A stretch of DNA of 60,915 nucleotides, filler included, from 6 parts of 6 records of this genome joined end to end with filler, not necessarily neighbours in it, one strand, 5' to 3'. Counted from the whole stretch's first letter, positions 29,707 to 60,043 are shown. The notes: a model not told the origin generated them from the sequence alone. A program made the numbers and translations.

Positions 29707-29806
29707 NNNNNNNNNNNNNNNNNNNNNNNNNNNNNNNNNNNNNNNNNNNNTTAATTAATTAANNNNNNNNNNNNNNNNNNNNNNNNNNNNNNNNNNNNNN
29801 NNNNNN
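29707..29806. other. Artificial contig spacer
   Basis: Same 100-nt linker. Confidence 0.99.
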
Positions 29807-29807
29807 G

Positions 29808-32800
29808 CAGCGCCTCTGGTTCCTCGCGCAGCTGGAGCCGGATAACCCCTTCTACAACACGCCGTTGGCACTGCGGTTGCAGGGGCATCTGGACAAGGAA
29901 GCCCTGCGCTTCGCTCTCAACAAACTGGTTGCGCGTCACGAAGTGCTGCGTTCCGCGTTCCGCAATCGCGACGGTGAGGCGGTTCAGATCATCCTTGATC
30001 ATCTCGACGTGCCCTTGCGTGAGATCGATCTGACCGCAACACCCGAGGCCGGGCGGGAAGCCGCGATGCTGGCCGAGGCCGAACGCGCCGCGCGGGAGCC
30101 TTTCCCTGATCTCGGTGCCCCGCCGCTGCTGCGTGCTGAGCTGGTTCTGCTTGAGCCGGGAGAGCATGTCCTACTCCTCACCTTCCACCACATCGTCATC
30201 GACGGCTGGTCTCTCAATCTTCTGTCCGGCGAGCTGGCCCGCGCCTACTCGGCCCATCTGGACGGCACCGCCGACGAGTTGCCGCCTCTGCCGGTTCAGT
30301 ATGCCGATTTCGCCGCCTGGCAGCGCGACTGGCTCACCGGCGATGTGCTGGAACAACAATTGAGCTACTGGCGGGATCAACTGGCCGACGCACCACCCAT
30401 GCTTTCGCTGCCGACCGATCGGCCAAGACCGGCGGTGCAGAGCTTCCGGGGCGGCAGCCTGCGTTTTACCATCGACGCGGAAACACGCGACAGTCTGAAG
30501 CAGCTCGGCCGGGCGCATGACGCGACCCTGTTCATGACCCTGCTGACGGGCTTCTCCGCGCTGCTGTACCGCTATAGCGGGCAGAACGATATCGTCATCG
30601 GATCACCGATCGCGAACCGCACCCACGCCCAGACAGAGGAGCTCGTCGGCTTCTTCGTCAATACGCTGGCGCTCAGGGTCAGACTGTCGGGGACGGCCGG
30701 CATACCCGCCCTGCTGGACCAAGTCCGGCAAACGGCGCTCGACGCCTATGCCCACCAGGACCTGCCGTTCGAACATCTGGTTGACGCGCTGCAGCCGGAC
30801 CGCGACCTCAGCCGCAATCCGGTCTTCCAGGTCATGATGGCGCTACAGAACATGCCGCTCGACCGGGGTGACGTGCGGGGGCTGACGCTCAGCTCCGTGC
30901 ATGTGGACCGTCGCGCCGCCCTGTTCGATCTGGTTCTGGATTTCTGGGACATGGATGATGGGCTGCAGGGCGTCATCGAATATAACCGCGACCTGTTCGA
31001 CCACGACACGGTCGTGCGCATGACCGGTCATTTCACGGTCTTGCTGCGCGCGATCGCTGCCGCGCCGGAGACGCCGGTCGACCTTTTGCCCCTGATGGAG
31101 CCGGATGAACGGGCCGCCGTTCTCGCACTGTCGAATGGACCCGACATTGTCCATCCGGTCGCGCAGAGCCTTGCCGAAGCCTTCGAGGCCCAGGTCGCGG
31201 CGACACCGGAGCGCGTGGCGGCGGAAGCGCACGGGGTCAGCCTCGATTATGACGCGTTGAACCGGCGCGCGAACCGGCTTGCCAATCTCCTGATTGCACT
31301 GGATGTCGCGCCGGGCGATCCGGTCGCTGTCCTGGTGCCCCGCGGTCTCGATTATCTCGCAAGCATACTCGGCATCATCAAGGCGGGCGGCTTGTTCCTG
31401 CCGCTCGACACGGCCTATCCGGGCGCCCGCCTGCATCACATGCTGGACGACAGCACTGCCGCCATCCTCGTCGCGGATGGGGACAACCTCGCGGCGCTCT
31501 CTGAAGAAGGTCTGCCGGAGAGTGTCGGAGACGTGGTTCTCTGCGGCGGCAATGCGACGCTGGAGAACAGCCCGGTCGGAGTCCGGGTTCACATGGCCAG
31601 CGCGCTCTCGGCCCAACCGGATGAGAATCCGCCGCTTACCAGCGGCCCCCGCGATCCGCTCTACCTGCTTTACACGTCCGGTTCGACGGGGCGACCGAAA
31701 GGCGCGCTCGTGCGTCATGAAGGCGCGCTCAACCATATCTTCGCCGAGTTCCGGCTGATGGATTTCGATGCTGACGGGGCCATCCTGCAAAGTGCACCGG
31801 CATCCTCGGACATCTCTGTCTGGCAATGCCTCGGGCCACTTCTGGTCGGCGGGCGTGTCGTCTTCGCGGATTTCGAGACCGTCGCCTCGCCGCGCGCCCT
31901 GCTTTCCCTCATCAGGGAAAGCCGCGTCAGCCTGATCGAGCTGGTGCCCGTGGTTCTCGAAAGCCTGATGAACGAGGCGGACGGCCTGCCCGGCGACCGC
32001 AGGGCATTGCCCGATCTCAAGCAGGCCATGGTCACCGGGGAATCCGTCTCCGTCGCCCTGGTGAACCGCTGGCTTTCGCTCTGGCCGGATATCCCGCTGA
32101 TCAATGCCTACGGCCCGACGGAAGCCGCCGACGATGTATGCCAGAGCGTGCTCGACACGCCGCTGCCAGCCGAACAGGTGACGGTTCCGATCGGCATGCC
32201 CGTCGACAATATGTCCGTGCAGATCCTCAACCCCTCTCTCGCCCTGCTGCCCATCGGCGTGCCCGGTGAGATCTGCGTCAGCGGTATTGGCGTCGGGGAC
32301 GGATACTGGCGCCGGCCGGAGCTGACCGCCGCGATGTTCGTCGATAATCCCCACGCGGATGAAACCTTCGGCGGCACTCTCTACCGCACCGGCGATCTCG
32401 GACGCTGGCGGCCGGACGGCTCTCTCGACTATCTCGGCCGTATCGACGGGCAGGTGAAAATCCGGGGCTTCCGGGTCGAGCTGGGCGAGATCGAAGCCGC
32501 CATCGGCCGCAATCCACAAATCCGCGAGGTTCTGGTCCAGGACTTCGTGGATGCCTCGGACGAGCGGCGCTTGTCTGCCTACATCCAGGTCCGGATGCCA
32601 GACGCCGAAGCGTCGGAGCTGGTTCAGGATCAGGTCGCGCTCTGGAAGGAGCTGCACGAGGCCAGCTATGCCGACGAATCCGCGGCAGAAGAAGATGCCA
32701 CCTTCAACACCATCGGCTGGGACAGCACCTTCACCGGTGAGCCCCTCTCGGCCGAAGAAATGCGGGAATGCGTCGATAACGCGATCTCGCGCATCCTTGC

Positions 32801-35800
32801 ACTGAAGCCTCAAAACCTTCTGGAAATCGGTTGCGGCACCGGCCTGCTACTTTACCGGCTGGTGCCGGAATGCGCGCACTATCTCGGCACGGATCTCTCT
32901 GCCGTCGCCATCGCGCAGCTTCAGGAGCGGCAGAACCGGCTTCTCATCGAGAAGCTGAGTGACGCCGAATTGCGGGCGCAAACCGCCGACGATTTTCAGG
33001 GGATCGCGCCGGGCAGTTTCGATACGCTCGTGCTGAATTCGGTGATCCAGTATTTCCCGAGCCGCGATTACCTGCTGGCGGTTCTGAGCGAAGCCGTCGC
33101 GCGCTGCGCCGATGGTGGTGCGATCTTTGTCGGGGACGTACGCAGTCTGCCTCTTCTGCGCGGCTATCACGGCGCCGTGCAATGCTTCAAGGCGGAGTCC
33201 GATGTGACCCGCGCCGAGCTTGCCGGGCGGATCGAGGACCAGCTTTCCCGCGAGCAGGAACTTGCCGTCGCGCCCAAGTTCTTCGAGACGCTTCGTCAGG
33301 TTCTGCCCCGTATCTCCGGGGTGGAAATCCGGCCGAAGCGCGGCACGGTCCACAATGAGATGACCTGCTTCCGCTACGATGTCGTGATCCGGGTCGCCGA
33401 ACCGGACAGAGTGCCCGATGACGGCGCACGGACGGATATCAACTGGGAGGATTGGCGGAAGGAGCGTCCGGCACTGGGCGACATCCGGGACCGTCTGGAA
33501 AACGCCTCCGGGGTCTGGGCCCTGCGCAATATTCCGAACGCGCGGCTCGACGAGATGCGCGCCCTGCTTGGCTGGCTTGAGGAAGCCCCGTCGAGTGCGG
33601 CGGTCGAGACCGCGAAAAGCAGAATGGCAGAGGCTGCCGGTCAGGGACTCGATCCGGAACAGCTTTGGGGACTGCAAGATACTCTTCCGGTAGAGGTCGA
33701 AATCTTCTGGGAGCCGGAAAGCGATTGCGGCGAGCTGGCCGTGCTGTTCCGGCCCAAAGGTCACGCCGCGATCCCGGATCCTGCCGCCAGCCTCTCGCAG
33801 CGGGAGATTTTCGAATCCCCGTCGCATCCCGAAGATCTCTTTGCCGGGATGACCAGCAATCCGCTGAGTGAGAGCTTCACCCGTCATCTGCTGCCGCGCC
33901 TGCGCCAGGATCTGAAGGGCCGTTTGCCGGAGCACATGATCCCGTCGAGCTTCGTGGTGATGGACCGTTTCCCACTCCTGCCGAACGGCAAGATCGACCG
34001 GCGTGCTTTGCCCGCACCGCGCATCCTCGCCCCGCTTCCCGGCAGCGGCACGGGACCCGAAACACTGACGGAGACAGCAGTGCAGCAGATCTGGGCCGAG
34101 GTGCTCGGGATCGCACCTCCGGGCACGGACGAGAATTTCTTCGAGCTCGGCGGCCACAGCCTGAAGGCAACCCAGGTGCTGAGCCGCCTGCAGGACAGGC
34201 TGCGCAAGGAGCTGACCCTGCGGGACATTTTCAATAACCCCACGATTGCCGCCCAGGCAGAGCTTCTCGACCGGCAGGAAAACGTTGCCTCGGAGCCGAT
34301 AACGACACTTCCGGACGCCGAGGATTATCCGGTGTCCTACGCCCAGCAGCGTCTCTGGTTCCTGGCGCAGATGGACGGGGGCGAGGCCTATCATATGGCG
34401 GACAGCCTGCGGGTGCGCGGTCTGCTGGAGATTGAAAGCCTGCGGCATGCCCTCGGGACCGTGATCGCCCGCCACGAAAGCCTCCGGACCAGCTTCCTGG
34501 AACAGGACGGCACATTACGCCAGCGGGTCGAGGCACCAGGCGCCATCCCGCTTGAGCTGATCGACCTCAGCCGGGAGGCCGACCCGCTCGCCGCCGCAAG
34601 ACAGCATGCCCTTGAGGATGCCCGCCGGGGCTTCGACCTCAGCCGGGCGCCACTGATCCGCCTGCATCTGCTGCGGCTTGGCGCGGACGATCATGTGCTG
34701 CTGTTCAACATGCATCACATCATCTCCGACGGCTGGAGCATGGACGTGCTGGTGCGCGAGATCATGACGCTCTACCGGGCAGCGCTGGGGAATGGCAATG
34801 CCGACCTGCCGCCGCTCGCCATCCAGCATCGCGACTATGTCGCCTGGCAGTCAGAGCGCCTGACAGAGCGGGCAGGTGCCCACCGTGCATTCTGGCAGAA
34901 ACAACTCGGCGACCTGCCGCCTCCGCTGGAGCTGCCCTGCGATTTCCCGCGCCCGCCGGTCAAAACCTATAACGGGGGGCGGCTGCGGCAGACCCTGGAT
35001 GCGGGCATGCTGGACAGTCTCAACACGCTGGCCCAGACCCACGGGACGAGCCTCTTCATGGTGCTGACGGCGCTGGTAAAAGTCTTCCTGCACCGGATCA
35101 GCGGGGCGGAGGATATCAGCCTCGGCGTTCCCGCTGCAGGGCGCGGGCATATGGATCTGGAAGGCCAGATCGGCTTCTTCGTCAACACGCTGGTTCTGCG
35201 TGACAGTATCGGCGGATCGGACAGTTTTGCGGAACTGCTCGACCGGGTTCGTCAGACATCGATAGAAGCCTATGCGCACGAGGATTATCCGTTCGACGAG
35301 ATCGTGCGCGACCTGAACGTGCCGCGCGATCCCAGCCGCAACCCGCTCTTCGATGTAATGGTCGCCTTCCAGAATACGGAGAATGTCGCCCTCGACCTCC
35401 CCAACCTGGAGATCACGTCACTCGGGCTGGATTACGGCACAAGCCAGTTCGATCAGCTCTGGAGTTTTTCCGAGACCGCCACCGGTCTGCAACTGGAGCT
35501 GCGCTTCAACCGGGATCTGTTCGAGGAAGCCAGTATCAGGCGCCAGATGGACTGCTGGACGGTTCTCGCCGAAAGCGCGGTCGATGCTCCGGAGGATGCA
35601 ATCGGACGCCTTCCGCTACTGACCCCAGATGAACGCACAGCGCTTCTGTCCCGGAACACTCCGATCGTGCAAACCGCTCCGGCACATGCCGGCCTTGCGG
35701 ACTGGTTCGAGGCACAGGCGGCCAGAACCCCGGATGCGATTGCGGTCAGCGACGGCGGGGAACATCTGAGCTATGCGGAGCTGAACGCCCGGGCCAACCG

Positions 35801-37583: not shown

Positions 37584-40500
37584 TCACTTCCCCACTGACC
37601 ACTCCCCCGGAGGCAGGGCAGAACGCCGACACCGACCGGAACCTGATTGCCATCGTCGGCATGGCGGGACGGTTCCCGAAGGCGGACGGGGTGGACGCTC
37701 TCTGGCGTCTCCTGCGGGAGGGGGGTGAAGGTCTCATCCGTTTCGAGCCCGGCGCCCTGCGCGCCGCCGGTGTACCCGAGGCGCTTTTCGGCGAGGAGGG
37801 CTATGTGCCGGTGAACGGCGCCCTCGACGGGATCGAGATGTTCGATGCCAACTTCTTCCAGATGCCGCCGAGCGAGGCCCGGATCACCGATCCGCAACAC
37901 CGGGTCATGCTGGAGCTGGCGTGGAACGCGCTGGAGCATAGCGGCCACGATCCGGAACGCGTCAAGGGGACGGTCGGCGTCTATGTCGGCTGCGGGCCCA
38001 GCAGCTATCTGCTCAACAATCTCTACCCCAACCGTGCCAGCCTGGCCGGAGCCGGGGAACTGCCGATCCAGATCGGCAACAACAAGGATTATCTGGCGAC
38101 CCGGATCTCCTACAAGCTGAACCTCACAGGCCCGAGCGTCTGCATCACCACCGCCTGCTCCACATCGCTCGTCACCGTGCATTTCGCCGCCCAGGCCCTG
38201 CTGGACTATCAGTGCGACATGGCGCTGGCGGGCGGAGCGTCGATCCAGGTGCCGCAGGATACGGGCTATCTGTATCAGGAAGGCGGCATCCTCTCGCCCG
38301 ACGGTCATTGCCGCGCCTTCGACGCCGAAGCCAGTGGCACCGTCAGCGGCAATGGCGCCGCCATCGTGGTCCTGAAACGCCTTGCCGACGCGGAGGCGGA
38401 CGGTGACCGCATCCATGCCATCATCCGTGGCTCGGCGGTCAATAATGATGGTGCCGACAAGGCCGGGTACACAGCCCCAAGCGTCAGCGGTCAGGCCCGT
38501 GTGATCGCCGAAGCCCTGGAGGTGGGCGAGACCGATCCGGCCAGCATCGGCTATATCGAGGCGCACGGCACCGGCACTCCGCTCGGCGATCCGATCGAGA
38601 TCGCGGCCCTTGCCCAGATTTTCGGCCGCGATGGCGCGGGCCGTCATATCGGTTCGGTCAAAACCAATCTTGGGCATCTGGACGAGGCCGCCGGAGTGAC
38701 CGGTCTTATCAAGACGGTGCTGGCCCTCGGCCACCGGGAAATCCCGCCCAGCCTGCATTACGAACGCCCAAACCCCGAGATCGACTTCGCCGCCAGTGGC
38801 CTTTCCGTGAATGCGGACCTCCTGCCCTGGCAGGAGGCAGCGGACGGCACCCCACGACGCGCGGGTGTGAGTTCCTTCGGCATCGGCGGCACCAACGCGC
38901 ATGTCGTGCTTGAGGAAGCCCCGCACAGACACACAGCGCCGGACCAGCGCCCGTTTCAGCTCCTGCCGATCAGCACGCGTAGCGAAGCTGCCCTCACTGA
39001 GCGCGTTCAAGCGCTCGCGACGTGGTTAAGGGTGCATCCGGAAGAGTCCCTGAGCGATGCAGCCTTCACCCTGCAATGCGGGCGGCGTGCCTTCCGTCAC
39101 CGTGCCGCGATAGTCACCGGGAACGCTTCAGACGCACGCGAGGCGCTGCTTAGTGTCTCGACCATATCCGCGTCACCGGAGAGGCCACCACCCGTCATCT
39201 TCCTGTGCAGCGGTCAAGGCAGCCAGTATCCCGGTATGGCCCGCGCGCTCTATGAACGCGAGCCGGTCTTCCGCGCGGCGCTGGACGATTGTGCTGTGCG
39301 CTTGCAGCCGCATATCGGCCAGGACCTGATTGCCCTGCTCTATCCCCCTGCGGGAGGTGACGAAGCAGCGGCCGGGGAGCGCCTGCGCCAGACGGCTTTG
39401 GCACAACCCGCCCTGTTCTCAATCGAATATGCGATGGCCGCTCTCTGGCGCCATTGGGGCATCCGGCCGACGGCACTGATCGGCCACAGTCTTGGCGAAT
39501 ATGTCGCCGCCTGCCTCTCCGGTGTGATGGATCTGGATACCGCTCTGGCTCTCGTCGCCGCGCGTGGCCGCCTGATGCAGTCCGCCCCTGCCGGGGCGAT
39601 GCTGGCCGTGGCAATGCCGCCACGGGATCTGGAGAATTTTCTCGGCGCCGGTCTGGATCTCGCCACCATCAATGCGCCGGACCGCTGCGTTGTCAGTGGC
39701 GCCAGCACCGCGATCGAGGCGCTGGCCGAACGGCTGGAGGCGGAAGGGCATCAGGCGCAGAGGCTCAATGTGTCCCACGCCTTCCATTCCGCCCTCATGG
39801 ATCCGGTGCTTGAAGCATTCGGGAAGGAGCTCCACCGCCACATCCTGAATGATCCCGAAATCCCCTATGTTTCTAACGTGACCGGGAGCTGGATCAGTGC
39901 GAAAGAGGCGCGCGATCCCGCCATGTATGTGCGCCATCTGCGCGCGCCGGTCGCCTTCCGGGACGGCATCGACTGCGTGCTGCGGGAATACCCGGACGCC
40001 ATCTTCGTCGAAATCGGCCCCGGACAGGCCCTGACGGCCATGGTGCGCCGGATCGCCGGGCCGAAAATCCATGCGCTTGCCTCCTTGCCGCCCGCCGGGA
40101 GCGCGACGGACGATCACAAGATGCTGCTCACCAGCCTCGGCACGCTTTGGCAGCAAGGGGGAGACATCGACTGGGAGGCGTTCGCCGAACCTGATCGCGG
40201 CCGCGTGCCCCTGCCGGGTTATCCGTTCGAACGCGCCCGCCACTGGGTGGATGCAATTCCCACCGGCGCCCTGCCCGCGCCCGAGACCGGCAAGCGCGAC
40301 GATGTCGCCAAATGGTTCTACAGGCCGACCTGGAAGCGCCTGCCCTGGAACGACGGCGATGAAGCGCCCGCAACGGAGAACAGGCGCCCGTGGCTTCTGG
40401 TCGGGGACGCCGACGGGATTGGCGGCGATCTGGCCGACCGCCTGAGGGCACGCGGCGAGCGTGTCGTCATTGCGCGCGCCGGTCCCGGTTTCTTCAGCCT

Positions 40501-43474
40501 CACCGCCGACACTTTTATGGTGCGTCCCGGCGCCTGGCAGGATTTCGTCACTTTGCTGGACACTCTTGCCGGCGCCGGTATTACACCCGGCCATATCGTG
40601 CATCTCTGGTCGCTCCGCGCGGACATGCCGGATCGCGACACTCTTGTCTTTCAAAGCCTGATCGCCACCGCGCAGGCCCTTGCGGAGCGCCGGGCCGATG
40701 AGCCGGTGGAGATCACTCTGGTCTGCCGTGGTGTCGAGGAGGTGAATGGCGAAGAAGACCTCAGCCCGCATGCCGCCGCCGCGATGGGGCCGGTACTGGT
40801 CATTCCCCAGGAACTCCCGCACATCTCCTGCCGGAGCATCGATATCGTCGTTCCGGACGGTGAAGGCATCACGCGGAACATTTGCCTCGACACGCTGGTT
40901 CAAGAGCTGGCCGCTCCCGGTACCGCCCGGCGCGTCGCCTTGCGGGGCCGTTACCGCTGGGGCCAGCTTTTCGAGCCTGCGCCCGCGCCCCTGCCCGGCG
41001 AGGGACTGCCGAAACGATTGCGGCACAAGGGCGTCTATCTGATCACCGGCGGTCTTGGCCGGATCGGCATGCTGCTGGCGGAATATCTCGCCGAGCGTGT
41101 CGAGGCCCGGCTGGTGCTGATCGGACGGTCGGCCCCGACGGACGCACAATCCGGGCGCATCGCCGCCATCGAGCAGAGCGGCGGCCGGGTGCTCATGATC
41201 CGCGCCGATATTGCCGATCCGGATGACATGAGCCGCGCCAAAATCCTCGCCGAAGAGACGTTCGGCCGGATCGACGGGGTGATCCATGCAGCGGCCCTGC
41301 CCGCTTCTGAAACCTATCGCGAGATCCGCGCCCTCACACCGGCCGACCGTGCGGCGGCGTTCCATGCCAAGGTCGGCGGCCTCGCCGCGCTTGAGCAGGC
41401 CTTCGCCGAGGTACCGCCCGACTTCTTCATGCTCTTCTCCTCATTGTCGGCAGTGCTCGGCGGGCTCGGTTTCGCCGCCTATGCAGGCGCCAACAGCGTG
41501 CTCGATGCCACGGCCAGGGAACGGCAACGGACGAGCAAAGCCACATGGATCAGCGTGAATTGGGACGGCTGGGATTTTGAGGCAGCCTCCACCGGTCAGT
41601 CCGCCTTCGAAAGCCGCTTGCAGAATGCGTCCATCACGCCGGACGAGGGCCGGGCAGCCTTCGAATTTCTGTTCAACGGATGTTTCTCCGGTCAGGTCGC
41701 CGTCTCCACCACCGATCTCGCGGACCGTCAGGCACGCGGGCATCAATCGCCTTTGCCTGAAACCGGAAAGCACATTGGCAGCATCGACGAGCGTCCGGAT
41801 AGCGGGCCGGAAGCGGAAATGGCGGCGCTCTGGTGCGCGGCTCTCGGGCTCGAGCAGGTCGGCCCGCATGACGATTTCTTTGCCCTGAACGGGGATTCCC
41901 TGCTCGGCACCCGCCTGATCGCGCAAATCAACCGCCATTTCAACAGCCGTCTCGAAGTGCGCGCCCTGTTCGAGCACCCGACCGTGGCCGGTCTTACGGC
42001 CCGGCTTATGGCAGACGGCACCATCGGGGCAGGCAATGACGCGGACGGAGACCGGAGCATGGACATCATCCTGCCCGCGGTTCCAGCACGGGATTACCCG
42101 CTGACGCACGGCCAGAAACGGCTGTGGATCCTGTCGCAATCCGAGGATGCGTCGGTCGCCTACAACATGGCCTACAATATGCGCCTGCGCGGCCCGCTTG
42201 ATGCCGAAGCGTTGCGTGCGGCTTTCGCGCACATCCTCAGCCGCCACGAAAGCCTGCGCACCGCCTTCGTGATGCGTGAGGGCATGCCGCGTCAGGAAAT
42301 CCGGGACGGCCTGCCTTTCATGCTCCCGGTCAGGGATATCTCGAAAGCAGAGGATCCCGTCGCCGAAGCGCGCGCGGCGGCCCGCGCGGAAGCCCGGCGG
42401 CCTTTCGATCTGACCCAGCCTCCGCTTCTTCGCGCCGAACTACTGTCCCTTTCCGCGGACGACCACGTGCTGCTGATCAGCCTGCATCACATCGTCTGCG
42501 ACGGTCTGAGCCTGAATATCCTGATGCGCGAGCTGCACGAGGCCTACAGCGCCTTCCGTGACGGCAGCGCCCCCGCGCACCCTCCCCTGAAGCTGCAATA
42601 CCGGGACTTCGCGGTCTGGCAGACCAGCGGTGCGGAAAGCGCGGCCATGGCATCTCATCGCGCCTATTGGCTGGACAGACTTCAGGGCGAACGCCCCTCT
42701 CTCGGGCTCGCCAGAGACTATACTGAAGGCCAGGAACACGGCTTCAGCGGCGGCCAGATTTTCGTGACGCTGGAGCGGGCCGAACGCGATCTGTTGCTCG
42801 ATCTGTGCCGCGATCAGAAGATCACCCTGTTCACGCTGTTGACCGCAGCCTTCAAGGTCCTGCTGCATCAGGCGAGCGGCCAGGACGACATTATTGTCGG
42901 CACCCCGGTGGCCGGCCGCGAACAGGCGGAGCTTGAAGGCCAGATCGGGTTGTACCTCAACAATCTGGTTCTGCGCGATCACGTCACCCGGCGCGAAAGT
43001 TTCAAGGATCTGCTGCGGCGCGTCCGCACGACCGTGACCGAGGCCTTCGCGCATCAATCCTATCCGTTCGACCGGCTGGTCGAGGATCTGGCGGTCCTCG
43101 GCGAGAAGCAGACACCGCTTTTCGAGGTCATGCTCAATCTGATGCCAAGTCAGGATCTCGACCTGCGGCTCGGCGATCTAACGCTGGAGAGCTTCCTTCT
43201 CGAAAACGAAAGCGCTCTCTTCGACCTGAACGTCATGGTCAACGACGCTTCGACCGGCCTTGCCATGGAGTTTTCCTACAACCTTGAACGGTATGAAGAA
43301 GCGCGGGTCCGGGCATTGGCTGAGAATTACCTGATCCTGCTCAGAAGCGTGGCGGCAAACCCGGAACAGAACGTCCGCGCCCTCTGCGCCCGCCTCGGAA
43401 GAGAGACCGGAGGATCAGAAACCGAGAAGGCCGACTTCCTCTCCAGCGCCCTCAATCTCGACGAGGTGTTCTAG
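37580..43474 (+). CDS. Hybrid type I PKS-NRPS: KS-AT-KR-ACP-C
   Basis: KS TACSTS/HGTGT/NLGHL; AT GHSLG plus HAFH; KR GGLGRIG...YAGAN; ACP GDSL; terminal C HHIVCDG; ATGA overlap with the NRPS. Confidence 0.95.
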   Translation: MITSPLTTPPEAGQNADTDRNLIAIVGMAGRFPKADGVDALWRLLREGGEGLIRFEPGALRAAGVPEALFGEEGYVPVNGALDGIEMFDANFFQMPPSEARITDPQHRVMLELAWNALEHSGHDPERVKGTVGVYVGCGPSSYLLNNLYPNRASLAGAGELPIQIGNNKDYLATRISYKLNLTGPSVCITTACSTSLVTVHFAAQALLDYQCDMALAGGASIQVPQDTGYLYQEGGILSPDGHCRAFDAEASGTVSGNGAAIVVLKRLADAEADGDRIHAIIRGSAVNNDGADKAGYTAPSVSGQARVIAEALEVGETDPASIGYIEAHGTGTPLGDPIEIAALAQIFGRDGAGRHIGSVKTNLGHLDEAAGVTGLIKTVLALGHREIPPSLHYERPNPEIDFAASGLSVNADLLPWQEAADGTPRRAGVSSFGIGGTNAHVVLEEAPHRHTAPDQRPFQLLPISTRSEAALTERVQALATWLRVHPEESLSDAAFTLQCGRRAFRHRAAIVTGNASDAREALLSVSTISASPERPPPVIFLCSGQGSQYPGMARALYEREPVFRAALDDCAVRLQPHIGQDLIALLYPPAGGDEAAAGERLRQTALAQPALFSIEYAMAALWRHWGIRPTALIGHSLGEYVAACLSGVMDLDTALALVAARGRLMQSAPAGAMLAVAMPPRDLENFLGAGLDLATINAPDRCVVSGASTAIEALAERLEAEGHQAQRLNVSHAFHSALMDPVLEAFGKELHRHILNDPEIPYVSNVTGSWISAKEARDPAMYVRHLRAPVAFRDGIDCVLREYPDAIFVEIGPGQALTAMVRRIAGPKIHALASLPPAGSATDDHKMLLTSLGTLWQQGGDIDWEAFAEPDRGRVPLPGYPFERARHWVDAIPTGALPAPETGKRDDVAKWFYRPTWKRLPWNDGDEAPATENRRPWLLVGDADGIGGDLADRLRARGERVVIARAGPGFFSLTADTFMVRPGAWQDFVTLLDTLAGAGITPGHIVHLWSLRADMPDRDTLVFQSLIATAQALAERRADEPVEITLVCRGVEEVNGEEDLSPHAAAAMGPVLVIPQELPHISCRSIDIVVPDGEGITRNICLDTLVQELAAPGTARRVALRGRYRWGQLFEPAPAPLPGEGLPKRLRHKGVYLITGGLGRIGMLLAEYLAERVEARLVLIGRSAPTDAQSGRIAAIEQSGGRVLMIRADIADPDDMSRAKILAEETFGRIDGVIHAAALPASETYREIRALTPADRAAAFHAKVGGLAALEQAFAEVPPDFFMLFSSLSAVLGGLGFAAYAGANSVLDATARERQRTSKATWISVNWDGWDFEAASTGQSAFESRLQNASITPDEGRAAFEFLFNGCFSGQVAVSTTDLADRQARGHQSPLPETGKHIGSIDERPDSGPEAEMAALWCAALGLEQVGPHDDFFALNGDSLLGTRLIAQINRHFNSRLEVRALFEHPTVAGLTARLMADGTIGAGNDADGDRSMDIILPAVPARDYPLTHGQKRLWILSQSEDASVAYNMAYNMRLRGPLDAEALRAAFAHILSRHESLRTAFVMREGMPRQEIRDGLPFMLPVRDISKAEDPVAEARAAARAEARRPFDLTQPPLLRAELLSLSADDHVLLISLHHIVCDGLSLNILMRELHEAYSAFRDGSAPAHPPLKLQYRDFAVWQTSGAESAAMASHRAYWLDRLQGERPSLGLARDYTEGQEHGFSGGQIFVTLERAERDLLLDLCRDQKITLFTLLTAAFKVLLHQASGQDDIIVGTPVAGREQAELEGQIGLYLNNLVLRDHVTRRESFKDLLRRVRTTVTEAFAHQSYPFDRLVEDLAVLGEKQTPLFEVMLNLMPSQDLDLRLGDLTLESFLLENESALFDLNVMVNDASTGLAMEFSYNLERYEEARVRALAENYLILLRSVAANPEQNVRALCARLGRETGGSETEKADFLSSALNLDEVF

Positions 43475-43476
43475 AC

Positions 43477-45348
43477 ATGTGCGGTTTCGTCGGATGCCAT
43501 AGCCCTGATGCGCCCGCCCCGTTCGACATGGTCCTGTTGCGGCGCATGACCGACACGCTGGCGCACCGGGGGCCGGACAAGGAGACGTACACCTGCGCGC
43601 CCGGTCTGGCGCTCGGGTTTCGCCGTCTTGCGATCATAGATCTGGATGGCGGAGACCAGCCGATCCGCAATGAAGACGATGCAATCACCCTCGTCTGTAA
43701 CGGGGAGATCTATAATCACCGGGAGCTGCGCGACGATCTCATCCGCCGGGGACACTGCTTCCGGGCGCAGGTCGACGTGGAGGTGCTGGTGCATCTTTAC
43801 GAGGAATACGGCCCCTCCTTCGTCGAGCGGCTGAATGGCCAGTTCGCCTTCGCGCTGCATGACCGGGCGCGGGACCGTCTGCTGCTCGGACGGGACCAGG
43901 CGGGCATCGCGCCGCTTTTCTATGTCTATCGCGACGGCGTTCTTCTGTTCGCCTCCGAGATCAAGGCGCTGCTGGAACACCCGATGGTCAGCCGCCGGGT
44001 CGACATGACTGGACTGGACCAGGTGCTGACCTTCCCAGGCCCGGTCAGCCCGAACAGCCTGTTCGCCGACGTGCGCAGTCTGCCGCCGGGACATCTGCTC
44101 ACCCTGGAAGAGGGCAGGCTCACCGTTAAGTCTTACTGGGATCTCGACTATCCGCTGGCAAAGGATCTGGATCCGGCGGCGGAGCCTGATTACCAGGATC
44201 TGGAAGACCGGCTGCGCACCTCCGTCGCCCGGCGCCTGCAGGCCGATGTGGATGTCGGTTTCTATCTGAGCGGCGGTCTCGACTCCTCGTTGATCGCCAG
44301 CCTGATCAGCGAACATGACGACGCTCATTATCTGAACCGCGCCAGGCACGCTTTCTCGATCGGCTTCACCGACACGCTGATCGACGAGCGGGCCATGCAG
44401 AACCTGATGGCCCGCCAGGTCGGCGCCCGTCATCACACCGAGATTTTCGACAGCGACGCTATCCAGAGCCGCCTGCGTCAGGCGATCTGGCATGCCGAGG
44501 CACCCCTCAAGGAAACCTACAATACCTGCTCGCTCGCCCTTTCGGGTCTGGTGCGCGGCAATGCCCTGAAGGTGGTTCTGACCGGAGAGGGCGCGGACGA
44601 ACTGTTCGGCGGCTATGTCGGCTATCGCCTCGACCAGCAGCGCCATGGCGCGGCGGATGATTTCAGTCTGGAAGCCCAGCTCAACCGGGAGACCCAGGAA
44701 CGTCTCTGGGGCGATCCCGGCTTCTTCTATGAGCGCGATTATGGCGCGTTTGCCGAGACCAAGGCCGCTTTCTACGCACCGGATGTCGCCGCCGGTCTGG
44801 CCTCTTTCGACTGCTGCCGGAATGCCCCCCTCGACAGCGCCAGGATGAAAGGCCGGCATCCTCTGCACCAGCGTTCCTATGCGGATTTCAAACTCCGTCT
44901 GGCCGATCATCTGTTGTCCGATCACGGCGACCGGGTCGCCTACGCTCATTCGGTCGAGGCCCGTTACCCGTTTCTCGATCCTGACGTTATCGAGTGGGTC
45001 CGGACCGCATCGCCGGACTGTCTGGTGCGTGACATGACGGAAAAATATCCGTTGCGGCGGCTCGCCGCGCATCGCCTGCCGCCGGAAATCACCAGGCGCG
45101 AGAAATTCGGTTTCGTCGCGCCTTCAAGCGCCTCCCTGCTGCAGGAGGGCGTCGCCTGGGTCGAAGACCTGCTGAGCCATGACCGGATCAGGCGCGCCGG
45201 CTATTTCAACGCCGACACGGTGGAGCGCCTGAAAACCCGCTACCGGCACCCCGGCTTCCGGCTGAACACCACTTTCGAGCCCGATCTGCTGATGATCGTC
45301 CTCTCCTTCGAAATCTTTCGGGAGTGTTTCGATGTCCCCCCTCTGTGA
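43477..45348 (+). CDS. asnB: Asparagine synthase (glutamine-hydrolysing)-like amidotransferase
   Basis: N-terminal MCG (Ntn Cys), HRGPD, NGEIYN, PP-loop LSGGLDSS, LTGEGADELFGGY and EARYPFLD. Confidence 0.93.
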   Translation: MCGFVGCHSPDAPAPFDMVLLRRMTDTLAHRGPDKETYTCAPGLALGFRRLAIIDLDGGDQPIRNEDDAITLVCNGEIYNHRELRDDLIRRGHCFRAQVDVEVLVHLYEEYGPSFVERLNGQFAFALHDRARDRLLLGRDQAGIAPLFYVYRDGVLLFASEIKALLEHPMVSRRVDMTGLDQVLTFPGPVSPNSLFADVRSLPPGHLLTLEEGRLTVKSYWDLDYPLAKDLDPAAEPDYQDLEDRLRTSVARRLQADVDVGFYLSGGLDSSLIASLISEHDDAHYLNRARHAFSIGFTDTLIDERAMQNLMARQVGARHHTEIFDSDAIQSRLRQAIWHAEAPLKETYNTCSLALSGLVRGNALKVVLTGEGADELFGGYVGYRLDQQRHGAADDFSLEAQLNRETQERLWGDPGFFYERDYGAFAETKAAFYAPDVAAGLASFDCCRNAPLDSARMKGRHPLHQRSYADFKLRLADHLLSDHGDRVAYAHSVEARYPFLDPDVIEWVRTASPDCLVRDMTEKYPLRRLAAHRLPPEITRREKFGFVAPSSASLLQEGVAWVEDLLSHDRIRRAGYFNADTVERLKTRYRHPGFRLNTTFEPDLLMIVLSFEIFRECFDVPPL

Positions 45349-45367
45349 GCCATCAAGGACCGCATTC

Positions 45368-47227
45368 ATGAACAAACTCATTCCGCACAGCGTTTTCGAG
45401 CATGTCGCCGCACAGAACGGCCCCCGGACCGCCATCGAGGAGCCCGGCCGCACGATCACCTATCAGGCGTTGAATGAGGCCGCCAACCGGGTGGCCCATG
45501 GACTGACGGAACATGGTCTGAAAACGGGCGATGTTGTTGCCCTGCATCTTCCCGCCGGAGTGGATTATGTGATTGCCCTGCTCGCCGTGGCCAAGGCGGG
45601 CGGTATCTTCCTGCCGCTGGATCTCACCGCACCGTCCCAGCGTCAGGCACATATCCTGTCCGTCGCCGCCCCTGCCCTCGTGATCTCCGGCAAGACGGCG
45701 GAACTCGCGACCGGCGCCCCGATTAAACGCCTCGCGGACCTGCCGCTCGACCGGACGGAAAATCCGGACATCACAACCGGGGGCGACGATGCCAGCTATA
45801 TCGTCTTCACCTCGGGCTCAACCGGAACGCCGAAAGCGATCCTCGGCAGCCAGAAGGGGCTCAGCCATTTCCTGCATTGGGAAATTGGCGAATTCGGCCT
45901 CGGCACGGAGACCCGGATCAGCCAGCTCGCGCCCGCCACCTTCGATGTCAGCCTGCGCGATATCCTGACGCCCCTGCTGGCGGGCGGGACCCTCTGCATT
46001 CCGCCGGAGGAGGCGCGCGGCAGCAGCCGGCATCTGCTGTCCTGGCTCGAGGATGCCCGGATCACGCTGACACATTGCGTGCCGTCCCTGTTCCGCGAGT
46101 TCATGACGGAGCTGGAAGCTGGCACCGCTTCCAGCTCGCGACTACCTTGCCTCAGCGATCTTCTGCTGGCCGGCGAGCCGCTTTACGGCGCCGACATCCG
46201 GCGCTGGCGGACGCTCATGGGAGACAGTGTCCACCTCACCAATCTCTACGGCCCGTCCGAGACCACACTCGCCAAGGCCTTCCACCGGATCGGGGATACG
46301 CCGGCCGAGCCGGGGCGCATGGTACCTGTTGGCAAGCCCCTGCCCAACAGCGCCCTGCTGGTGGTTAAGGATGGCGAGCTTTGCGATGCGGGAGAGATCG
46401 GCGAGGTCTTCATCAAGACGCCGTTCATGAGCAAGGGGTATCTTGGCGCGCCGGACCTCATGTCCGGGGTTTTCGTGCAGAATCCGTTAACCCCGGACAC
46501 ACCGGATATCGTCTATCGCAGCGGCGATATCGGCCGCTATATGGGCGACCATACGGTCGAGCTGCTGGGCCGGAAAGACGATCAGGTCAAGATCAACGGC
46601 ATCCGGATCGAGCTTGCCGAAGTCGAGGCCGCGATCCGGCATCATCCGGCCATCACGGCCGCGATCGTCATCGCGCACCGCCCGGCGGCACGGGAACCAA
46701 GCCTCACCGCCTATTACATTTCCGCTACGCCCCTCACCGGGTCCGAGATCCGCCAGCATCTCGGCGACTGGCTGCCGCCAAGCATGCAGCCAGCCCATTT
46801 CGTCGAAATGGATCAGTTCCCGCTGAACCTGCATGGAAAGGTGGACCGCCGGGCCCTGCCCCCGCCCGTCGACCTGCTCTATCTCGACGCCCCCTATGTC
46901 GCCTCCGCGAACGAAACCGAAAGCAGCCTGGCCGCGCTCTGGGGTGAGGTGCTTGAGCTTCCGAAGGTTGGCGTCACGCATAGCTTCGTCGATCTCGGCG
47001 GCGACTCCCTGAAGGCGATCCGCGTTCTGTCGCGCGTCTACCAGACATTCGGGATCGAGGTGAAGCTTCAGGAATTGTTCCCGGACGGCACCGTGCGCGG
47101 CCTCGCCCGGGCGCTGACCGCACGCGGCGCCGGAAACAGTCCAGTGGCCGAGCCGGAACTGGTAACGGCCGGCATCCAGGAGGACCGGTCGCGACAACAA
47201 AGCGGCAAAGCGGGAGCCCGGCCATGA
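45368..47227 (+). CDS. Stand-alone NRPS A-T didomain
   Basis: FTSGSTGTPK, YGPSET, YRSGD, LHGKVDR and T motif GGDSL; no C domain; ATG 45368 has an AAGGA RBS. Confidence 0.92.
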   Translation: MNKLIPHSVFEHVAAQNGPRTAIEEPGRTITYQALNEAANRVAHGLTEHGLKTGDVVALHLPAGVDYVIALLAVAKAGGIFLPLDLTAPSQRQAHILSVAAPALVISGKTAELATGAPIKRLADLPLDRTENPDITTGGDDASYIVFTSGSTGTPKAILGSQKGLSHFLHWEIGEFGLGTETRISQLAPATFDVSLRDILTPLLAGGTLCIPPEEARGSSRHLLSWLEDARITLTHCVPSLFREFMTELEAGTASSSRLPCLSDLLLAGEPLYGADIRRWRTLMGDSVHLTNLYGPSETTLAKAFHRIGDTPAEPGRMVPVGKPLPNSALLVVKDGELCDAGEIGEVFIKTPFMSKGYLGAPDLMSGVFVQNPLTPDTPDIVYRSGDIGRYMGDHTVELLGRKDDQVKINGIRIELAEVEAAIRHHPAITAAIVIAHRPAAREPSLTAYYISATPLTGSEIRQHLGDWLPPSMQPAHFVEMDQFPLNLHGKVDRRALPPPVDLLYLDAPYVASANETESSLAALWGEVLELPKVGVTHSFVDLGGDSLKAIRVLSRVYQTFGIEVKLQELFPDGTVRGLARALTARGAGNSPVAEPELVTAGIQEDRSRQQSGKAGARP

Positions 47228-49020
47228 CCACGCTGGAATTCTATCCGGTGGATGATGTCGAGTCGGGCACGAAGCAGTCCTATCCCGGCTCGTTTGCGCA
47301 ACAGCGCCTCTGGATCCTGTCCCAGATGGACCGGTCCATTGACGCCTATGTCATTACCCGTGCTCTCAGAGTGCGCGGCCCTCTCGACCTGCCCGCCCTG
47401 ACGGCCACCATCGACGGCATCATGGCCCGGCACGAGATGTTGCGGACCCGCTTCGAGATGCAGGACGGCGCGCTCCGGCAGATCGTCGAGCCACACATAT
47501 CCGCGCCCATCAGGCAAAGCGACGTCAGTGGAACGACGGATCCGGAGGCGGCGTGCCGCGCCCTTCTCCGGGAGGATCTCGCCGCCCCCTTCGCTCTCTC
47601 CCGGACGCCTTTGTGGCGTGTCCGTCTCTGCAAGCTCGGCGACGGGGACTGGGTGCTCGCCCTGATCGTCCATCACATCATTGCGGACGCATGGTCGATG
47701 GAACTGCTGCAGCAAGAACTCGCGCTGCGCTACCAGGCCCATGTCTCGGGCGCGGAGCTGGCACTACCCGCGCCCCGCCGGAACTACGGCGACTATGCCG
47801 CATGGCAGCACTCGCCCGAAGCCTGCGAGGCGATGGAGGAAGCAAGAGCCTACTGGATGCAAAAGCTGGCGGACCCGGAGCTGCTGGAGCTGCCCGCCGA
47901 CATGCCCGGCCCGCGCCGCATGCTGGCACCTGCTGCAACCCTCCGGCACGCATTCGACCCGATCCAGGTTCAGGCCCTGAAAATGCTGGCCACGGACCAG
48001 AGCAGCTCCCTCTTCATGGCCTTGACCGCGCTGGTCAAGACGCTGCTCTACCGGTATTGCGGCCAGCGTGACATCACGGTCGGCACGCCCGTCGCCGGAC
48101 GAAACCGGCCGGAGCTGGAAACAGTCGTCGGGCTGTTCATGAATGTCGTCGCCCTGCGGGACGAGATTGATCCCGGCGACGGCTTCACCACCCTGCTCGA
48201 TCAGGTGGCACGCACCGCCTACGAAGCCTTCGCCCATCAAAATTACTCGCTGGAACATCTGATCGACGATCTGGATCTGGAACGCGACGCCGCCCGGGCA
48301 CCCCTGTTCGATGTTCTGGTCGCCCTGCAAAACGTTCCCGCGGCAAGCTCCCGCGTCGCGGACCTGCAGATCGGCCCCTTCGAGGCAGGACCGGAAGCAG
48401 CGAAATACGACCTGATCTTCGAATTCGCGGAAGACGGCGACGGCCTGATCCTCAACCTGATCTACAGCACCGGTCTGTTCAGCGCCGAAGCCATGACGCG
48501 TCTTTGCAGCCATCTCGAACGGCTATTGGAAGGTCTGCTCTCGGCGCCCGAAGCCCCCGTCGGTACCCTGCCGCTGCTGACCCGCGCAGAACGGGCCGAG
48601 CTTGCAGGCTGGGCCGGGGGAGCCTCCCCCTATCCGCGTGAAGCATCGCTGACCGATCTCTTCGAAGAGATCGTTGCGGCTACCCCCGATGCGCCGGCGC
48701 TGCGCTTTGGTGAGACCACGCTGAGCTATGCGCAGCTTGATGACCGCGCAGGCAAGCTCGCGGCTTATATCGATGCGCACTACGCGCCCGAACCCGGTGC
48801 CGTCATCGGGCTCTGTCTTGAGCGCGGCATTGATCTCGTTGTTGCCATGCTCTCCATCCTGAAGACAGGCGGGGCTTATCTGCCGCTGGACCCGGACCTG
48901 CCTGCCGAGCGCCTCGGTTATATGATCGGGGAAGCAAAGGTCGGGCTCGTCGTCAGCCAGAAGGCGCTGGTGGAGGCGTTGCCCGAGGGAGGCTACGCAC
49001 AGCTTCTGATCGACAGGGAC
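47224..49020 (+). CDS. NRPS, 3'-truncated: C-A(N-terminal part)
   Basis: SFAQQRLW, HHIIADAWS, then LSYAQLD and GGAYLPLDP; ATGA overlap with the A-T gene. Confidence 0.93.
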
Positions 49021-49120
49021 NNNNNNNNNNNNNNNNNNNNNNNNNNNNNNNNNNNNNNNNNNNNTTAATTAATTAANNNNNNNNNNNNNNNNNNNNNNNN
49101 NNNNNNNNNNNNNNNNNNNN
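49021..49120. other. Artificial contig spacer
   Basis: Same 100-nt linker. Confidence 0.99.
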
Positions 49121-49990: not shown

Positions 49991-50003
49991 GGTACACCGC
50001 ATC

Positions 50004-50792: not shown

Positions 50793-50795
50793 AAT

Positions 50796-52637: not shown

Positions 52638-52658
52638 GGTTCTCTTTAAGTGGAAACA

Positions 52659-53642: not shown

Positions 53643-53691
53643 AATGGCTCCGTCTATGCGTGTTGTTGTCTCGAAAACAAGACTACACCAT

Positions 53692-54177: not shown

Positions 54178-54180
54178 GCC

Positions 54181-55461: not shown

Positions 55462-55468
55462 GGCGTAC

Positions 55469-56215: not shown

Positions 56216-56368
56216 TGTTAACTACCTGTTTTGTACAAAGTAAATTCATTTTGTCCTAGACAGAAAATAAAGTCACGCGTTCAATCAAAACTTCCAGGCA
56301 TCACAAGAAAGCCCAAATTGTCCGGTTAGACTTTCTCCATCCCCATTACAAAGCAGGAGACTCACCAC

Positions 56369-57145: not shown

Positions 57146-57251
57146 GGTGCTTAAATCCCAATTAATTGGGAATTAAATCGAATTAAATTCGAATTGTTCA
57201 GGTCTCGTACCGTTGAAACAGACCGTCTCAGTAAAAAATTTGAAATATTTT

Positions 57252-58205: not shown

Positions 58206-58220
58206 AATATAAAATGGCTG

Positions 58221-60036: not shown

Positions 60037-60043
60037 GCCTCAT

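Follow-up and report, generated by a model that had tools for sequence, protein, structure and literature searches.

A hybrid NRPS-PKS cluster fragment of probable Nisaea-like origin with a candidate AsnB-linked adenylation-carrier cassette

The block at positions 29807-49020 of the window (the whole stretch of DNA that was analysed, 60,915 nt) is a complete contig of 19,214 nt. It carries five co-oriented genes, all on the + strand and with no internal stop in any reading frame, and is bordered on both sides by artificial sequence. The following features were found.

29707..29806, no strand: artificial spacer that joins the block to the contig on its left, 44 N + TTAATTAATTAA + 44 N
29808..37583, +: gene 1, NRPS truncated at its 5' end, C-A(MT)-T-C-A-T, 2591 aa in frame from 29808 (Pfam, frame, motifs)
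29808..31142, +: C domain 1, HHIVIDG at aa 127, end coordinate approximate (Pfam, motifs)
31197..34013, +: A domain 1, code DIWEMTADDK, with a methyltransferase inserted between A8 and A10 (motifs)
32754..33143, +: SAM-dependent methyltransferase insert, Methyltransf_12/23/25, LLEIGCGTG (Pfam, motif)
34077..34268, +: T domain 1, LGGHSL (Pfam, motif)
34320..35648, +: C domain 2, HHIISDG (Pfam, motif)
35706..37166, +: A domain 2, code DFWNIGMVHK (Pfam, motifs)
37239..37442, +: T domain 2, GAHS variant, passing the chain on to the KS; approximate coordinates (Pfam, motif)
37580..43474, +: gene 2, hybrid PKS-NRPS, 1964 aa, its ATG overlapping the gene 1 stop (ATGA) (Pfam, motifs)
37646-38764, +: gene 2 KS, Cys193, His329, His366 (Pfam, motifs)
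39197-40051, +: gene 2 AT, GHSLG...HAFH (Pfam, motifs)
41030-41572, +: gene 2 KR, Ser-Tyr-Asn region present (Pfam, motifs)
41822-42007, +: gene 2 ACP, GDS (Pfam, motif)
42089-43381, +: gene 2 C domain, at the end of the gene (Pfam)
43477..45348, +: gene 3, glutamine-dependent AsnB-family amidotransferase, 623 aa (Pfam GATase_7 and Asn_synthase)
45332..47227, +: gene 4, stand-alone A-T, 631 aa; translation may in fact begin at the Met at 45368 (Pfam, motifs)
45395-46861, +: gene 4 A domain, code DVRHLALLAK (Pfam, motifs)
46928-47116, +: gene 4 T domain, LGGDSL (Pfam, motif)
47224..49020, +: gene 5, NRPS truncated at its 3' end (Pfam, motifs)
47275-48603, +: gene 5 C domain, HHIIADA (Pfam, motif)
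From 48661, +: gene 5 A domain, with about 116 of 384 profile positions present before the contig ends (Pfam)
49021..49120, no strand: artificial spacer that joins the block to the contig on its right, 44 N + TTAATTAATTAA + 44 N

The spacers are 100 nt each and consist of N-runs with a six-frame stop linker. Since the contig runs from 29807 to 49020, both ends of the block are truncated; C domain 1 lacks only a few residues, because its start falls in the C1 motif region. A TTG start at 29865 and a stop at 49068, both proposed by the ORF finder, were rejected as artefacts of the spacer. The spacers part the block from contigs of other organisms, and the neighbours thus give no genomic context. 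As a separate contig in a mixed-organism concatenation, a status overlooked in the first-pass annotation, the block can be assigned neither host nor flanks from the window. Indeed, where several organisms' contigs are chained, any flank-based inference on host, regulation or island borders would mislead.

The domain order returned by Pfam was C-A(MT)-T-C-A-T / KS-AT-KR-ACP-C / GATase + Asn_synthase / A-T / C-A (partial), which amounts to four C, four A (one partial) and three T domains plus the ACP of the PKS module. We observed HHxxxD(G/A) in all four C domains, motifs A3-A10 and the carrier-domain serines, and the PKS module is complete by Pfam and motif check (KS triad, AT, KR and ACP). A gap of 2 nt separates gene 2 from gene 3; with the ATG at 45332 as its start, gene 4 shares 17 nt with gene 3; and the ATGA overlaps described at 37580 and 47224 were confirmed. 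The five genes are predicted to be translationally coupled. The first-pass annotation, which had described five co-oriented and tightly spaced genes in this domain order with truncated ends, was thus correct on each of these points. The functions for loading (starter unit) and release (TE or R domain), like a PPTase, would be encoded outside the contig, past either end. Overall, the block is an ordinary orphan NRPS-PKS cluster fragment with one putative tailoring cassette.

The A-domain codes were read by hand at motif positions and compared with reference codes for Dab and Thr. The code of the first A domain of gene 1 differs by one residue from what we take to be the Dab code, and that of the second is identical to what we take to be the Thr code. 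The insert in the first A domain was assigned as an N-methyltransferase because of its position inside that domain. An earlier reading of this part as an N-methyl-diamino acid followed by Thr is thus supported by comparison with these codes. In a PDB comparison of the first A domain, no Dab-activating domain was singled out and the top matches were gramicidin synthase; a literature search on A-domain specificity codes found no reports. The A domain of gene 4 carries an unusual Arg-His at code positions 3-4 and matches no recognisable Asp or Glu code. The (amidated) acidic residue proposed earlier for this position therefore stands only in part: an acidic or amide type linked to AsnB is plausible, but the code itself names neither Asp nor Glu. 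Arg-His might accommodate either a carboxamide or a carboxylate. A protein cluster search retrieved generic A-T clusters only.

Gene 3 starts with MCGF (nucleophile Cys2), has the PP-loop SGGLDS at aa 265 and matches TIGR01536, the general asparagine synthase model, end to end with 428 bits (cut-off, 267). Its nearest PDB structure is the hydroxyamidotransferase 7ylz (E 3e-58, alignment accuracy 0.79), and E. coli AsnB, 1ct9, is matched at 4e-47.

The relatives of the contig were then considered. Over 2537 aa, gene 1 shares 80.4% identity with the partial Nisaea sp. protein P0311, in which both A codes are the same and at least one further module lies upstream. The AsnB gene is 86% identical to that of N. 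nitritireducens and 73% identical to that of Thalassobaculum sp. OXR-137. By these matches, the contig probably comes from a Nisaea-like (Thalassobaculaceae) marine alphaproteobacterium. The same gene order was found in an acidobacterial genome, a Vicinamibacterales MAG (unannotated and uncharacterised locus L003, JBFWUK010000002.1), as ...A-T-C-A(Thr code)-T / KS-AT-KR-ACP-C / AsnB / A-T (DVRHLAVLAK) / C-A-..., with a Thr code identical to that of the second A domain of gene 1 and an A-T code nearly identical to that of gene 4. Identities are 52% for gene 1, 48% for gene 2 (across its full length, with positions 4207-9999 of L003), 62% for AsnB, 54% for the A-T and 42% for gene 5, the last with the first C-A of the downstream NRPS. 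This relative belongs to another phylum and is just 42-62% identical; its downstream modules have two DAFFLGVTFK codes and one E domain, a region that the cut gene 5 of the contig does not reach. The L003 homologue of gene 5 has at least 2731 aa and is still open, and this together with the upstream module in the Nisaea protein P0311 supports the earlier claim that the cluster exceeds 19 kb. The best match of gene 5 among proteins of 1050-2995 aa was 41% identical, and there is thus no orthologue in that size range. A DNA similarity search against E. coli genomes gave no match, a search of plasmid DNA gave 119 records, which match generic KS or A segments at 70-78% identity and each cover at most 4% of the contig, and a literature search on nonribosomal synthesis in Nisaea found nothing relevant.

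In Thalassobaculum sp. OXR-137, an uncharacterised 95-kb NRPS/PKS cluster on genomic island GI13 was described in 2025 (PMC12016528). As described there, the cluster has CAL, KS-AT-KR, nMT (Fig. 3 legend), E and two TE domains, an ABC exporter and a prohibitin gene, its closest relatives in nr belong to Nisaea sp., and its best known-cluster match in antiSMASH is tubulysin, at 6% (PMC12016528). This low match in a related cluster agrees with the first-pass annotation, which could match the assembly line to no known compound.

We then investigated the surroundings of AsnB homologues. The search of genome contigs gave at least 79 loci, with no Nisaea or Thalassobaculum genomes among the matches listed. 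Of the loci fetched, 17 have an AsnB of at least 44% identity (among the matches listed). An A domain whose code has Arg-His at positions 3-4 was found in 12 of them, and in 8 of the 12 the first NRPS gene to follow AsnB is the one that encodes it. Across the at least 79 loci, the Arg-His type accounts for 16 of 53 NRPS-type A domains near AsnB among the matches listed, compared with 10 of 670 A domains (1.5%) of unrelated NRPS proteins. The AsnBs of all 12 Arg-His loci and that of the window fall into one 18-row clade with an SH-aLRT of 100, and this placement among NRPS-embedded homologues argues for a specialised AsnB substrate. The pairing was seen, among the matches listed, in Pseudomonadota, Acidobacteriota, Bacteroidota, Actinomycetota, Verrucomicrobiota and Lentisphaerota, with Thalassobaculum sp. 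OXR-137, Tenacibaculum litoreum and Streptomyces cellostaticus as examples of cultured carriers. One locus type has a TauD hydroxylase beside AsnB. In the other 5 of the 17 close loci (among the matches listed), no Arg-His A domain lies within 10 kb: L001 and L038 are short contigs, L009 has other NRPS types, and L005, like L002, has NRPS genes with Phe- and Tyr-like codes. In L002, a beta-lactamase-like protein and then AsnB close the run of NRPS genes, an arrangement that fits post-assembly tailoring better. The L002 AsnB also adjoins SPFH and ABC genes.

Taken jointly, we consider it likely that the contig is an internal piece, on a contig of its own, of a large Nisaea-like cis-AT NRPS-PKS line in which AsnB would amidate the residue on the gene 4 carrier. 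By colinearity, the incoming chain (carrying a Val/Ile-like residue in the Nisaea homologue) would be condensed with an N-methylated Dab-like residue, and Thr would be added second. KS-AT-KR-ACP would then add one malonate unit and reduce the ketone, giving a statine-like 4-amino-3,5-dihydroxyhexanoyl unit. The terminal C domain of gene 2, which has no A-T of its own, would draw its acceptor from gene 4, whose stand-alone A-T would complete a split module, and the C-A of gene 5 would extend the line. The conserved association suggests that AsnB works with the gene 4 A-T. Most likely, it would amidate, with glutamine and ATP, the free carboxylate of an acidic (Asp-like) residue on, or just condensed onto, the gene 4 carrier, yielding a residue of the asparagine or isoasparagine type. 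A large lipopeptide-polyketide is the probable product; taking the 95-kb relative as a guide, the block would represent about one fifth of its assembly line.

More generally, we tentatively put forward, as a possibility, that AsnB and the Arg-His A-T form a widespread and undescribed NRPS cassette, in which the A domain loads an acidic amino acid and AsnB amidates its free carboxylate on the carrier to give an asparagine/isoasparagine-type residue. A literature search on AsnB-like amidation on carrier proteins, or on stand-alone A domains with asparagine synthetase, found nothing relevant. If true, the tRNA-dependent route to asparagine would have an equivalent on carrier proteins. Amidation of a carrier-bound residue would also be a tailoring step that present specificity predictors mis-call, and would make the pair a genome-mining marker of amide-bearing residues in many unexplored clusters.

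A role of AsnB away from the carrier, either in supplying free asparagine as a precursor or in amidating the released product late, seems to us rather doubtful but deserves weight. It is consistent with the score of gene 3 above the cut-off of the general TIGR01536 model and with L002 (perhaps also L005), where AsnB ends the NRPS genes and no Arg-His A domain lies within 10 kb. Moreover, the best 150 AsnB representatives include no fusion with an A-T (149 are of 344-679 aa and one is an ATP-grasp fusion), and the nearest solved structure, 7ylz, is a hydroxyamidotransferase that presumably acts on a free polyketide acid. However, asparagine supply predicts ordinary Asn-type codes, whereas AsnB tracks the rare Arg-His type (16 of 53 among the matches listed, against 10 of 670), and loci L018 and L020 carry a standard Asn-like code plus two Arg-His domains. 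In the contig itself, AsnB is wedged between a gene ending in a C domain and the A-T, with predicted translational coupling to both.

That AsnB transfers hydroxylamine instead of ammonia, producing a hydroxamate as the trichostatin enzyme does, appears very unlikely. The top PDB match is indeed the hydroxyamidotransferase 7ylz (E 3e-58, against 4e-47 for 1ct9), but this margin over a true AsnB is small at an alignment accuracy of 0.79, the contig has no hydroxylamine-donor genes, and gene 3 aligns with the full length of the general AsnB model.

We likewise regard it as highly improbable that the cluster is of the paenilamicin or galantin type of cationic peptide-polyketide, a likeness drawn in the first-pass annotation. 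What recalls these compounds is only the Dab-like code on a methyltransferase-bearing A domain, together with the amino-acid-derived ketide that comes next. Among the matches listed in the plasmid, protein or genome-contig searches, none was a relative from a producer of this kind; the closest relatives are Nisaea, Thalassobaculum and the acidobacterial MAG, and the related OXR-137 cluster has tubulysin as its best antiSMASH match, at 6% (PMC12016528). The likeness lies in a predicted N-methylated diamino acid in a peptide-polyketide hybrid; the producers are of other taxa.

We give equally little credence to the block being a horizontally acquired island in a genome bearing the flanking genes of 52-53% G+C: G+C does step sharply at both edges (64.7% in the block, 52.7% and 53.5% in the adjacent contigs), but the N-runs and six-frame stop linker there, of which identical copies occur at five places in the window, mark contig joins and not sequence continuity, the flanking hexapeptide transferase and trpD are cut at spacers, and the window's contigs map to three different genera. 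Among neighbour-contig genes, accA, L,D-transpeptidase, esterase and SDR fall in clusters named Limnobacter at 90% identity or more, and LrgB and a sigma D regulator in Alcanivorax clusters.

Returning to the reading of the contig as part of a Nisaea-like line with an amidating AsnB, its value is as a pointer to an uncharacterised compound family common to marine Thalassobaculaceae and at least one soil acidobacterium, for which the cultured strain Thalassobaculum sp. OXR-137 is at hand for chemistry. The 95-kb cluster of that strain resembles the contig in being a Thalassobaculaceae NRPS/PKS hybrid with KS-AT-KR, nMT and nearest relatives in Nisaea. The contig differs in covering 19 kb only, without the CAL start, E, two TE, ABC exporter and prohibitin gene, and the 73% identical AsnB is a likeness at the level of the strain.

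The XrtA/PEP-CTERM system also pairs an AsnB-family amidotransferase with an adenylate-forming enzyme, in that case an acyl-CoA ligase. Membership was rejected, since gene 3 scores 383 bits with TIGR03108 (cut-off, 816.9) and gene 4 scores 151 bits with TIGR03098 (cut-off, 592), both far below, and the tree places gene 3 apart, the ligase-associated AsnB clade being sister to the NRPS-associated one. The ligases of XrtA-type loci are also of about 520-550 aa, and their pocket residues are quite different.

In the CysH system, a stand-alone A-T-type module prepares a tailored asparagine/isoasparagine-type residue on its carrier and feeds it in trans to a line without a working A domain at that position, similarly to what we propose for gene 4. 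CysH, however, loads Asn directly, has an AMDH domain in cis and transfers the residue via the shuttle protein CysB, whereas the contig has no AMDH domain and no CysB homologue but a separate AsnB-family enzyme. Finally, in the thalassospiramide and didemnin lines of marine Rhodospirillales, an amino-acyl carrier delivers to KS-AT-KR-ACP, and a gamma-amino-beta-hydroxy acid results in the peptide. To our knowledge, their products involve no Dab and no AsnB step; it is this NRPS-to-PKS statine hand-over that the contig resembles in its predicted architecture.

Five identical spacers of 100 nt, each made of 44 N, TTAATTAATTAA and another 44 N, were found by script in the window, which is thus made up of six contigs strung together and does not represent a continuous genomic stretch.

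Segments of the window and the spacers between them
1-5379: segment 1, G+C 60.5%
5380-5479: spacer
5480-8922: segment 2, G+C 61.7%
8923-9022: spacer
9023-29706: segment 3, G+C 52.7%
29707-29806: spacer
29807-49020: segment 4, G+C 64.7%
49021-49120: spacer
49121-57415: segment 5, G+C 53.5%
57416-57515: spacer
57516-60915: segment 6, G+C 59.9%

The block under study coincides exactly with segment 4, which is an entire contig (19,214 nt). Since spacers between contigs create false starts or stops in any ORF that touches them, the TTG start at 29865 and the stop at 49068 called by the ORF finder were products of the stop-in-all-frames linker and not gene ends. The inner-edge genes of the neighbouring segments were also broken by spacers (on the left a hexapeptide transferase, on the right a trpD without its N-terminal part). 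By exact-sequence look-up, accA, an L,D-transpeptidase, an esterase and an SDR from segments 3 and 5 fell into Limnobacter-named clusters (90% identity or higher), and LrgB and the sigma D regulator of segment 1 into Alcanivorax clusters. Matches to the AsnB homologue encoded by gene 3 of the block included a metagenomic protein at 99% identity, one from Nisaea nitritireducens at 86% and one from Thalassobaculum sp. OXR-137 at 73%. A search with residues 1-600 of gene 1 turned up P0311, an incomplete Nisaea sp. protein (3467 aa), to which gene 1 was 80.4% identical across 2537 residues. Judged by these matches, the window mixes at least three genera, the NRPS contig being Nisaea-like, so that the flanks are uninformative about the NRPS-PKS cluster; the source "genome" is, on the same grounds, either a mixed assembly or a bin whose members were poorly separated.

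Other features outside the block
16097-17920, minus strand: 607-aa AMP-binding gene of acyl-CoA-ligase type on the Limnobacter-like contig, unrelated to the NRPS block although it might be taken for a member of it
57531-58205: short ORF beginning at the contig edge, in which just the C-terminus of a UvrD-like helicase is present
58221-59036, minus strand: AbiU2-type HEPN protein on the last contig, adjoining the short ORF

The HEPN gene and the helicase remnant (57531-59036) may be part of a defence locus.

Genes of the block, with Pfam domains
29808-37583: gene 1, C-A(MT)-T-C-A-T
37580-43474: gene 2, KS-AT-KR-ACP-C
43477-45348: gene 3, GATase and Asn_synthase
45332-47227: gene 4, A-T
47224-49020: gene 5, C, followed by an A domain that is covered up to position 116 of 384

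The domain order proposed in the first-pass annotation was borne out by Pfam, and the ATGA overlaps that it placed at 37580 and 47224 were both found. None of the five gene frames contained an internal stop. In all four C domains, the HHxxxD motif had its second His and its Asp, the KS of gene 2 had Cys193, His329 and His366, every carrier domain retained its serine, and Cys2 and the SGGLDS PP-loop of AsnB were intact. The AT of gene 2 carried GHSLG and HAFH motifs, which we take to mean malonyl-CoA specificity. The block is genuine and intact, yet incomplete: an orphan NRPS-PKS fragment of a Nisaea-like bacterium, on its own contig.

The earlier view that both ends are truncated and that the cluster exceeds 19 kb also held, as the block is a whole contig and its relatives extend further. 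P0311, itself cut, has one additional upstream module, (C)-A-T, with the code (ten A-domain pocket residues) DAFFLGGTFK. DNA searches of E. coli genomes and plasmids gave no colinear relative. A genome-contig search with AsnB gave 79 loci among the matches listed, with no Nisaea or Thalassobaculum genomes among them; one of these, L003, on a 278-kb contig of a Vicinamibacterales MAG, had the same gene order as the block.

Genes of L003 compared with the block
...A-T-C-A-T: 52% identity to gene 1
KS-AT-KR-ACP-C: 48% identity to gene 2, full length
AsnB: 62% identity to gene 3
A-T: 54% identity to gene 4
NRPS of at least 2731 aa, C-A-T-C-A-T-E-C...: first C-A 42% identical to gene 5

No full-length gene 5 orthologue was present among proteins of 1050-2995 aa, which agrees with gene 5 being very long.

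Codes were read from aligned A domains at positions set relative to the core motifs. The first A domain of gene 1, which contains the MT, gave DIWEMTADDK, one residue off the Dab code, and PDB comparison singled out no Dab-activating domain for it. The second gave DFWNIGMVHK, which matches the Thr code and is shared unchanged by L003 and P0311. The last domain of gene 2 is a C domain without its own A-T and gene 4 is an A-T without a C domain, and we read the two together as a split module. By colinearity, the predicted chain would be ...(Val/Ile-like)-N-Me-Dab-like-Thr-[malonate, reduced]-X-..., in which Thr and the ketide would form a statine-like 4-amino-3,5-dihydroxyhexanoyl unit. The N-methyl-diamino acid, Thr and reduced ketide of the chain drawn up earlier are retained as predictions; for the amidated acidic residue placed next, the gene 4 code, DVRHLALLAK, matches none known to us.

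The pairing of AsnB with this A-T protein is the sole feature of the block beyond a routine orphan cluster. Pocket codes were taken from all A-type domains in the 79 loci among the matches listed. Among NRPS-type A domains lying near AsnB relatives in these loci, 16 of 53 had Arg-His at code positions 3-4, against a background of 10/670 A domains of unrelated NRPS proteins, namely those returned by the searches with gene 5 and with residues 1-600 of gene 1. Among the matches listed, 12 of the 17 loci whose AsnB was at least 44% identical to gene 3 had an Arg-His domain, and in 8 of the 12, as in the window, it was carried by the first NRPS gene to follow AsnB.

Arg-His codes
Window, gene 4: DVRHLALLAK
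L003: DVRHLAVLAK
L004, Flavobacteriaceae MAG: DVRHFALLAK
L018 and L020, Tenacibaculum: DVRHLAILAK and DARHLSLMIK
Four Streptomycetaceae loci: DARHLALMTK
L007 (Roseivirgaceae MAG) and L014 (Acidimicrobiales MAG): DARHLSLMVK
L019 and L028 (Lentisphaerae and Verrucomicrobia MAGs): DVRHLALL(K/A)K

In a quick IQ-TREE phylogeny of AsnB (76 rows; L038 was too short for inclusion), the window protein and all 12 AsnBs of Arg-His loci fell into one 18-row clade (SH-aLRT 100). The sister clade (24 rows) contained all 17 AsnBs adjoining 520-550-aa ligases of a different pocket type, and a third (34 rows) had no ligase close by. The 12 Arg-His loci do not count as 12 separate events and represent about six lineages. 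Members of the 18-row clade without an Arg-His domain were L001 (a 7.4-kb contig), L010 (no ligase), L009 (other NRPS types), and L002 and L005, whose NRPS genes carry Phe- and Tyr-like codes; L038, a 3.1-kb contig, also lacked one.

Gene neighbourhoods of other AsnB relatives
L002, 7624-14421 (Tahibacter MAG): AsnB after a beta-lactamase-like protein at the end of NRPS genes, facing an SPFH/prohibitin gene and an ABC transporter
L004, 10001-21857: PKS ending in C, AsnB, luciferase-like monooxygenase, then three consecutive Arg-His modules of one shared code (two of them A-T-C genes, the third an A domain that runs off the end of the locus)
L019, 7163-15851, and L028, 4629-17594: compact set of A-T (Arg-His), NAD-synthase-like PP-loop enzyme, AsnB, C-A-T and PPTase, among glycosyltransferases; the single C-A-T has a Pro-like or Val code
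17 loci (e.g. L011, L013, L017, L024, L027, L030-L032, L035, L036): AsnB relatives 35-40% identical, beside adenylate-forming ligases of 500-600 aa whose pocket strings include DYYPTTM-RK and SYSSTAMARK

In L004, it is as if one AsnB-linked residue were added three times. The L019/L028 set may serve to couple a small amidated peptide to either a glycan or a lipid, and the 17-locus set looks like an exosortase-associated amidotransferase/ligase pair. P0525, an AsnB-type representative of 1103 aa, is an amidotransferase fused to an ATP-grasp domain; the best 150 AsnB representatives included no fused AsnB-A-T protein.

The gene 4 code retains the Asp of position 1 and the Lys of position 10, indicating that the substrate is an amino acid, and the Arg and His of the pocket suggest that its side group is acidic or strongly polar. 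To our knowledge, the only well-known codes with Arg-His at positions 3-4 are those of the microcystin modules for iso-linked D-methyl-aspartate and D-glutamate, residues that retain a free carboxylate. Judged by its motifs, AsnB is fully equipped to hydrolyse glutamine and to adenylate a carboxylate. We tentatively favour amidation at the carrier level. The gene 4 A domain would load an Asp-like acid onto its own carrier, AsnB would convert the free carboxylate to an amide before or just after chain attachment by the gene 2 C domain, and the C domain of gene 5 would pass the chain on, with asparagine or isoasparagine as the resulting residue. In the Tenacibaculum loci, a TauD-type hydroxylase, of a kind known to hydroxylate carrier-bound Asp or Asn, lies beside AsnB. 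A role of AsnB in precursor supply or late tailoring seems rather unlikely to us, and we give little weight to hydroxamate formation, to which the sole pointer is the best PDB match of AsnB, 7ylz. Searches of the open-access PMC and bioRxiv literature gave no description of an AsnB working with a dedicated A-T protein.

The block belongs to a well-known kind of system, the modular cis-AT NRPS-PKS hybrid with a trans-acting module, and to a cluster family without an assigned product. According to PMC12016528, the hydrothermal-plume isolate Thalassobaculum sp. OXR-137 has a related 95-kb cluster of 12 NRPS and 3 PKS modules, published in 2025 as novel and uncharacterised. Its domains include CAL, nMT, E and two TE; it adjoins a cyclic-peptide ABC exporter and a prohibitin gene, a pair like that of L002, and its nearest nr relatives are from Nisaea sp. 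The AsnB that is 73% identical to gene 3 comes from this strain and may lie within the 95-kb cluster. The likeness to paenilamicin/galantin suggested earlier found no support, because no such relatives appeared in searches with the contig against plasmids, with AsnB, with gene 5 or with gene 1 residues 1-600, the actual relatives came from other taxa (Nisaea, Thalassobaculum, the Vicinamibacterales MAG), and the best antiSMASH match of the OXR-137 cluster was tubulysin A at 6% (PMC12016528). The closest described logic is that of the cystobactamid linker, in which the stand-alone module CysH modifies asparagine on its carrier and supplies it in trans (PMC7966384); that route relies on an AMDH domain in cis plus a shuttle protein and on no AsnB, whereas the block pairs its A-T protein with an AsnB.
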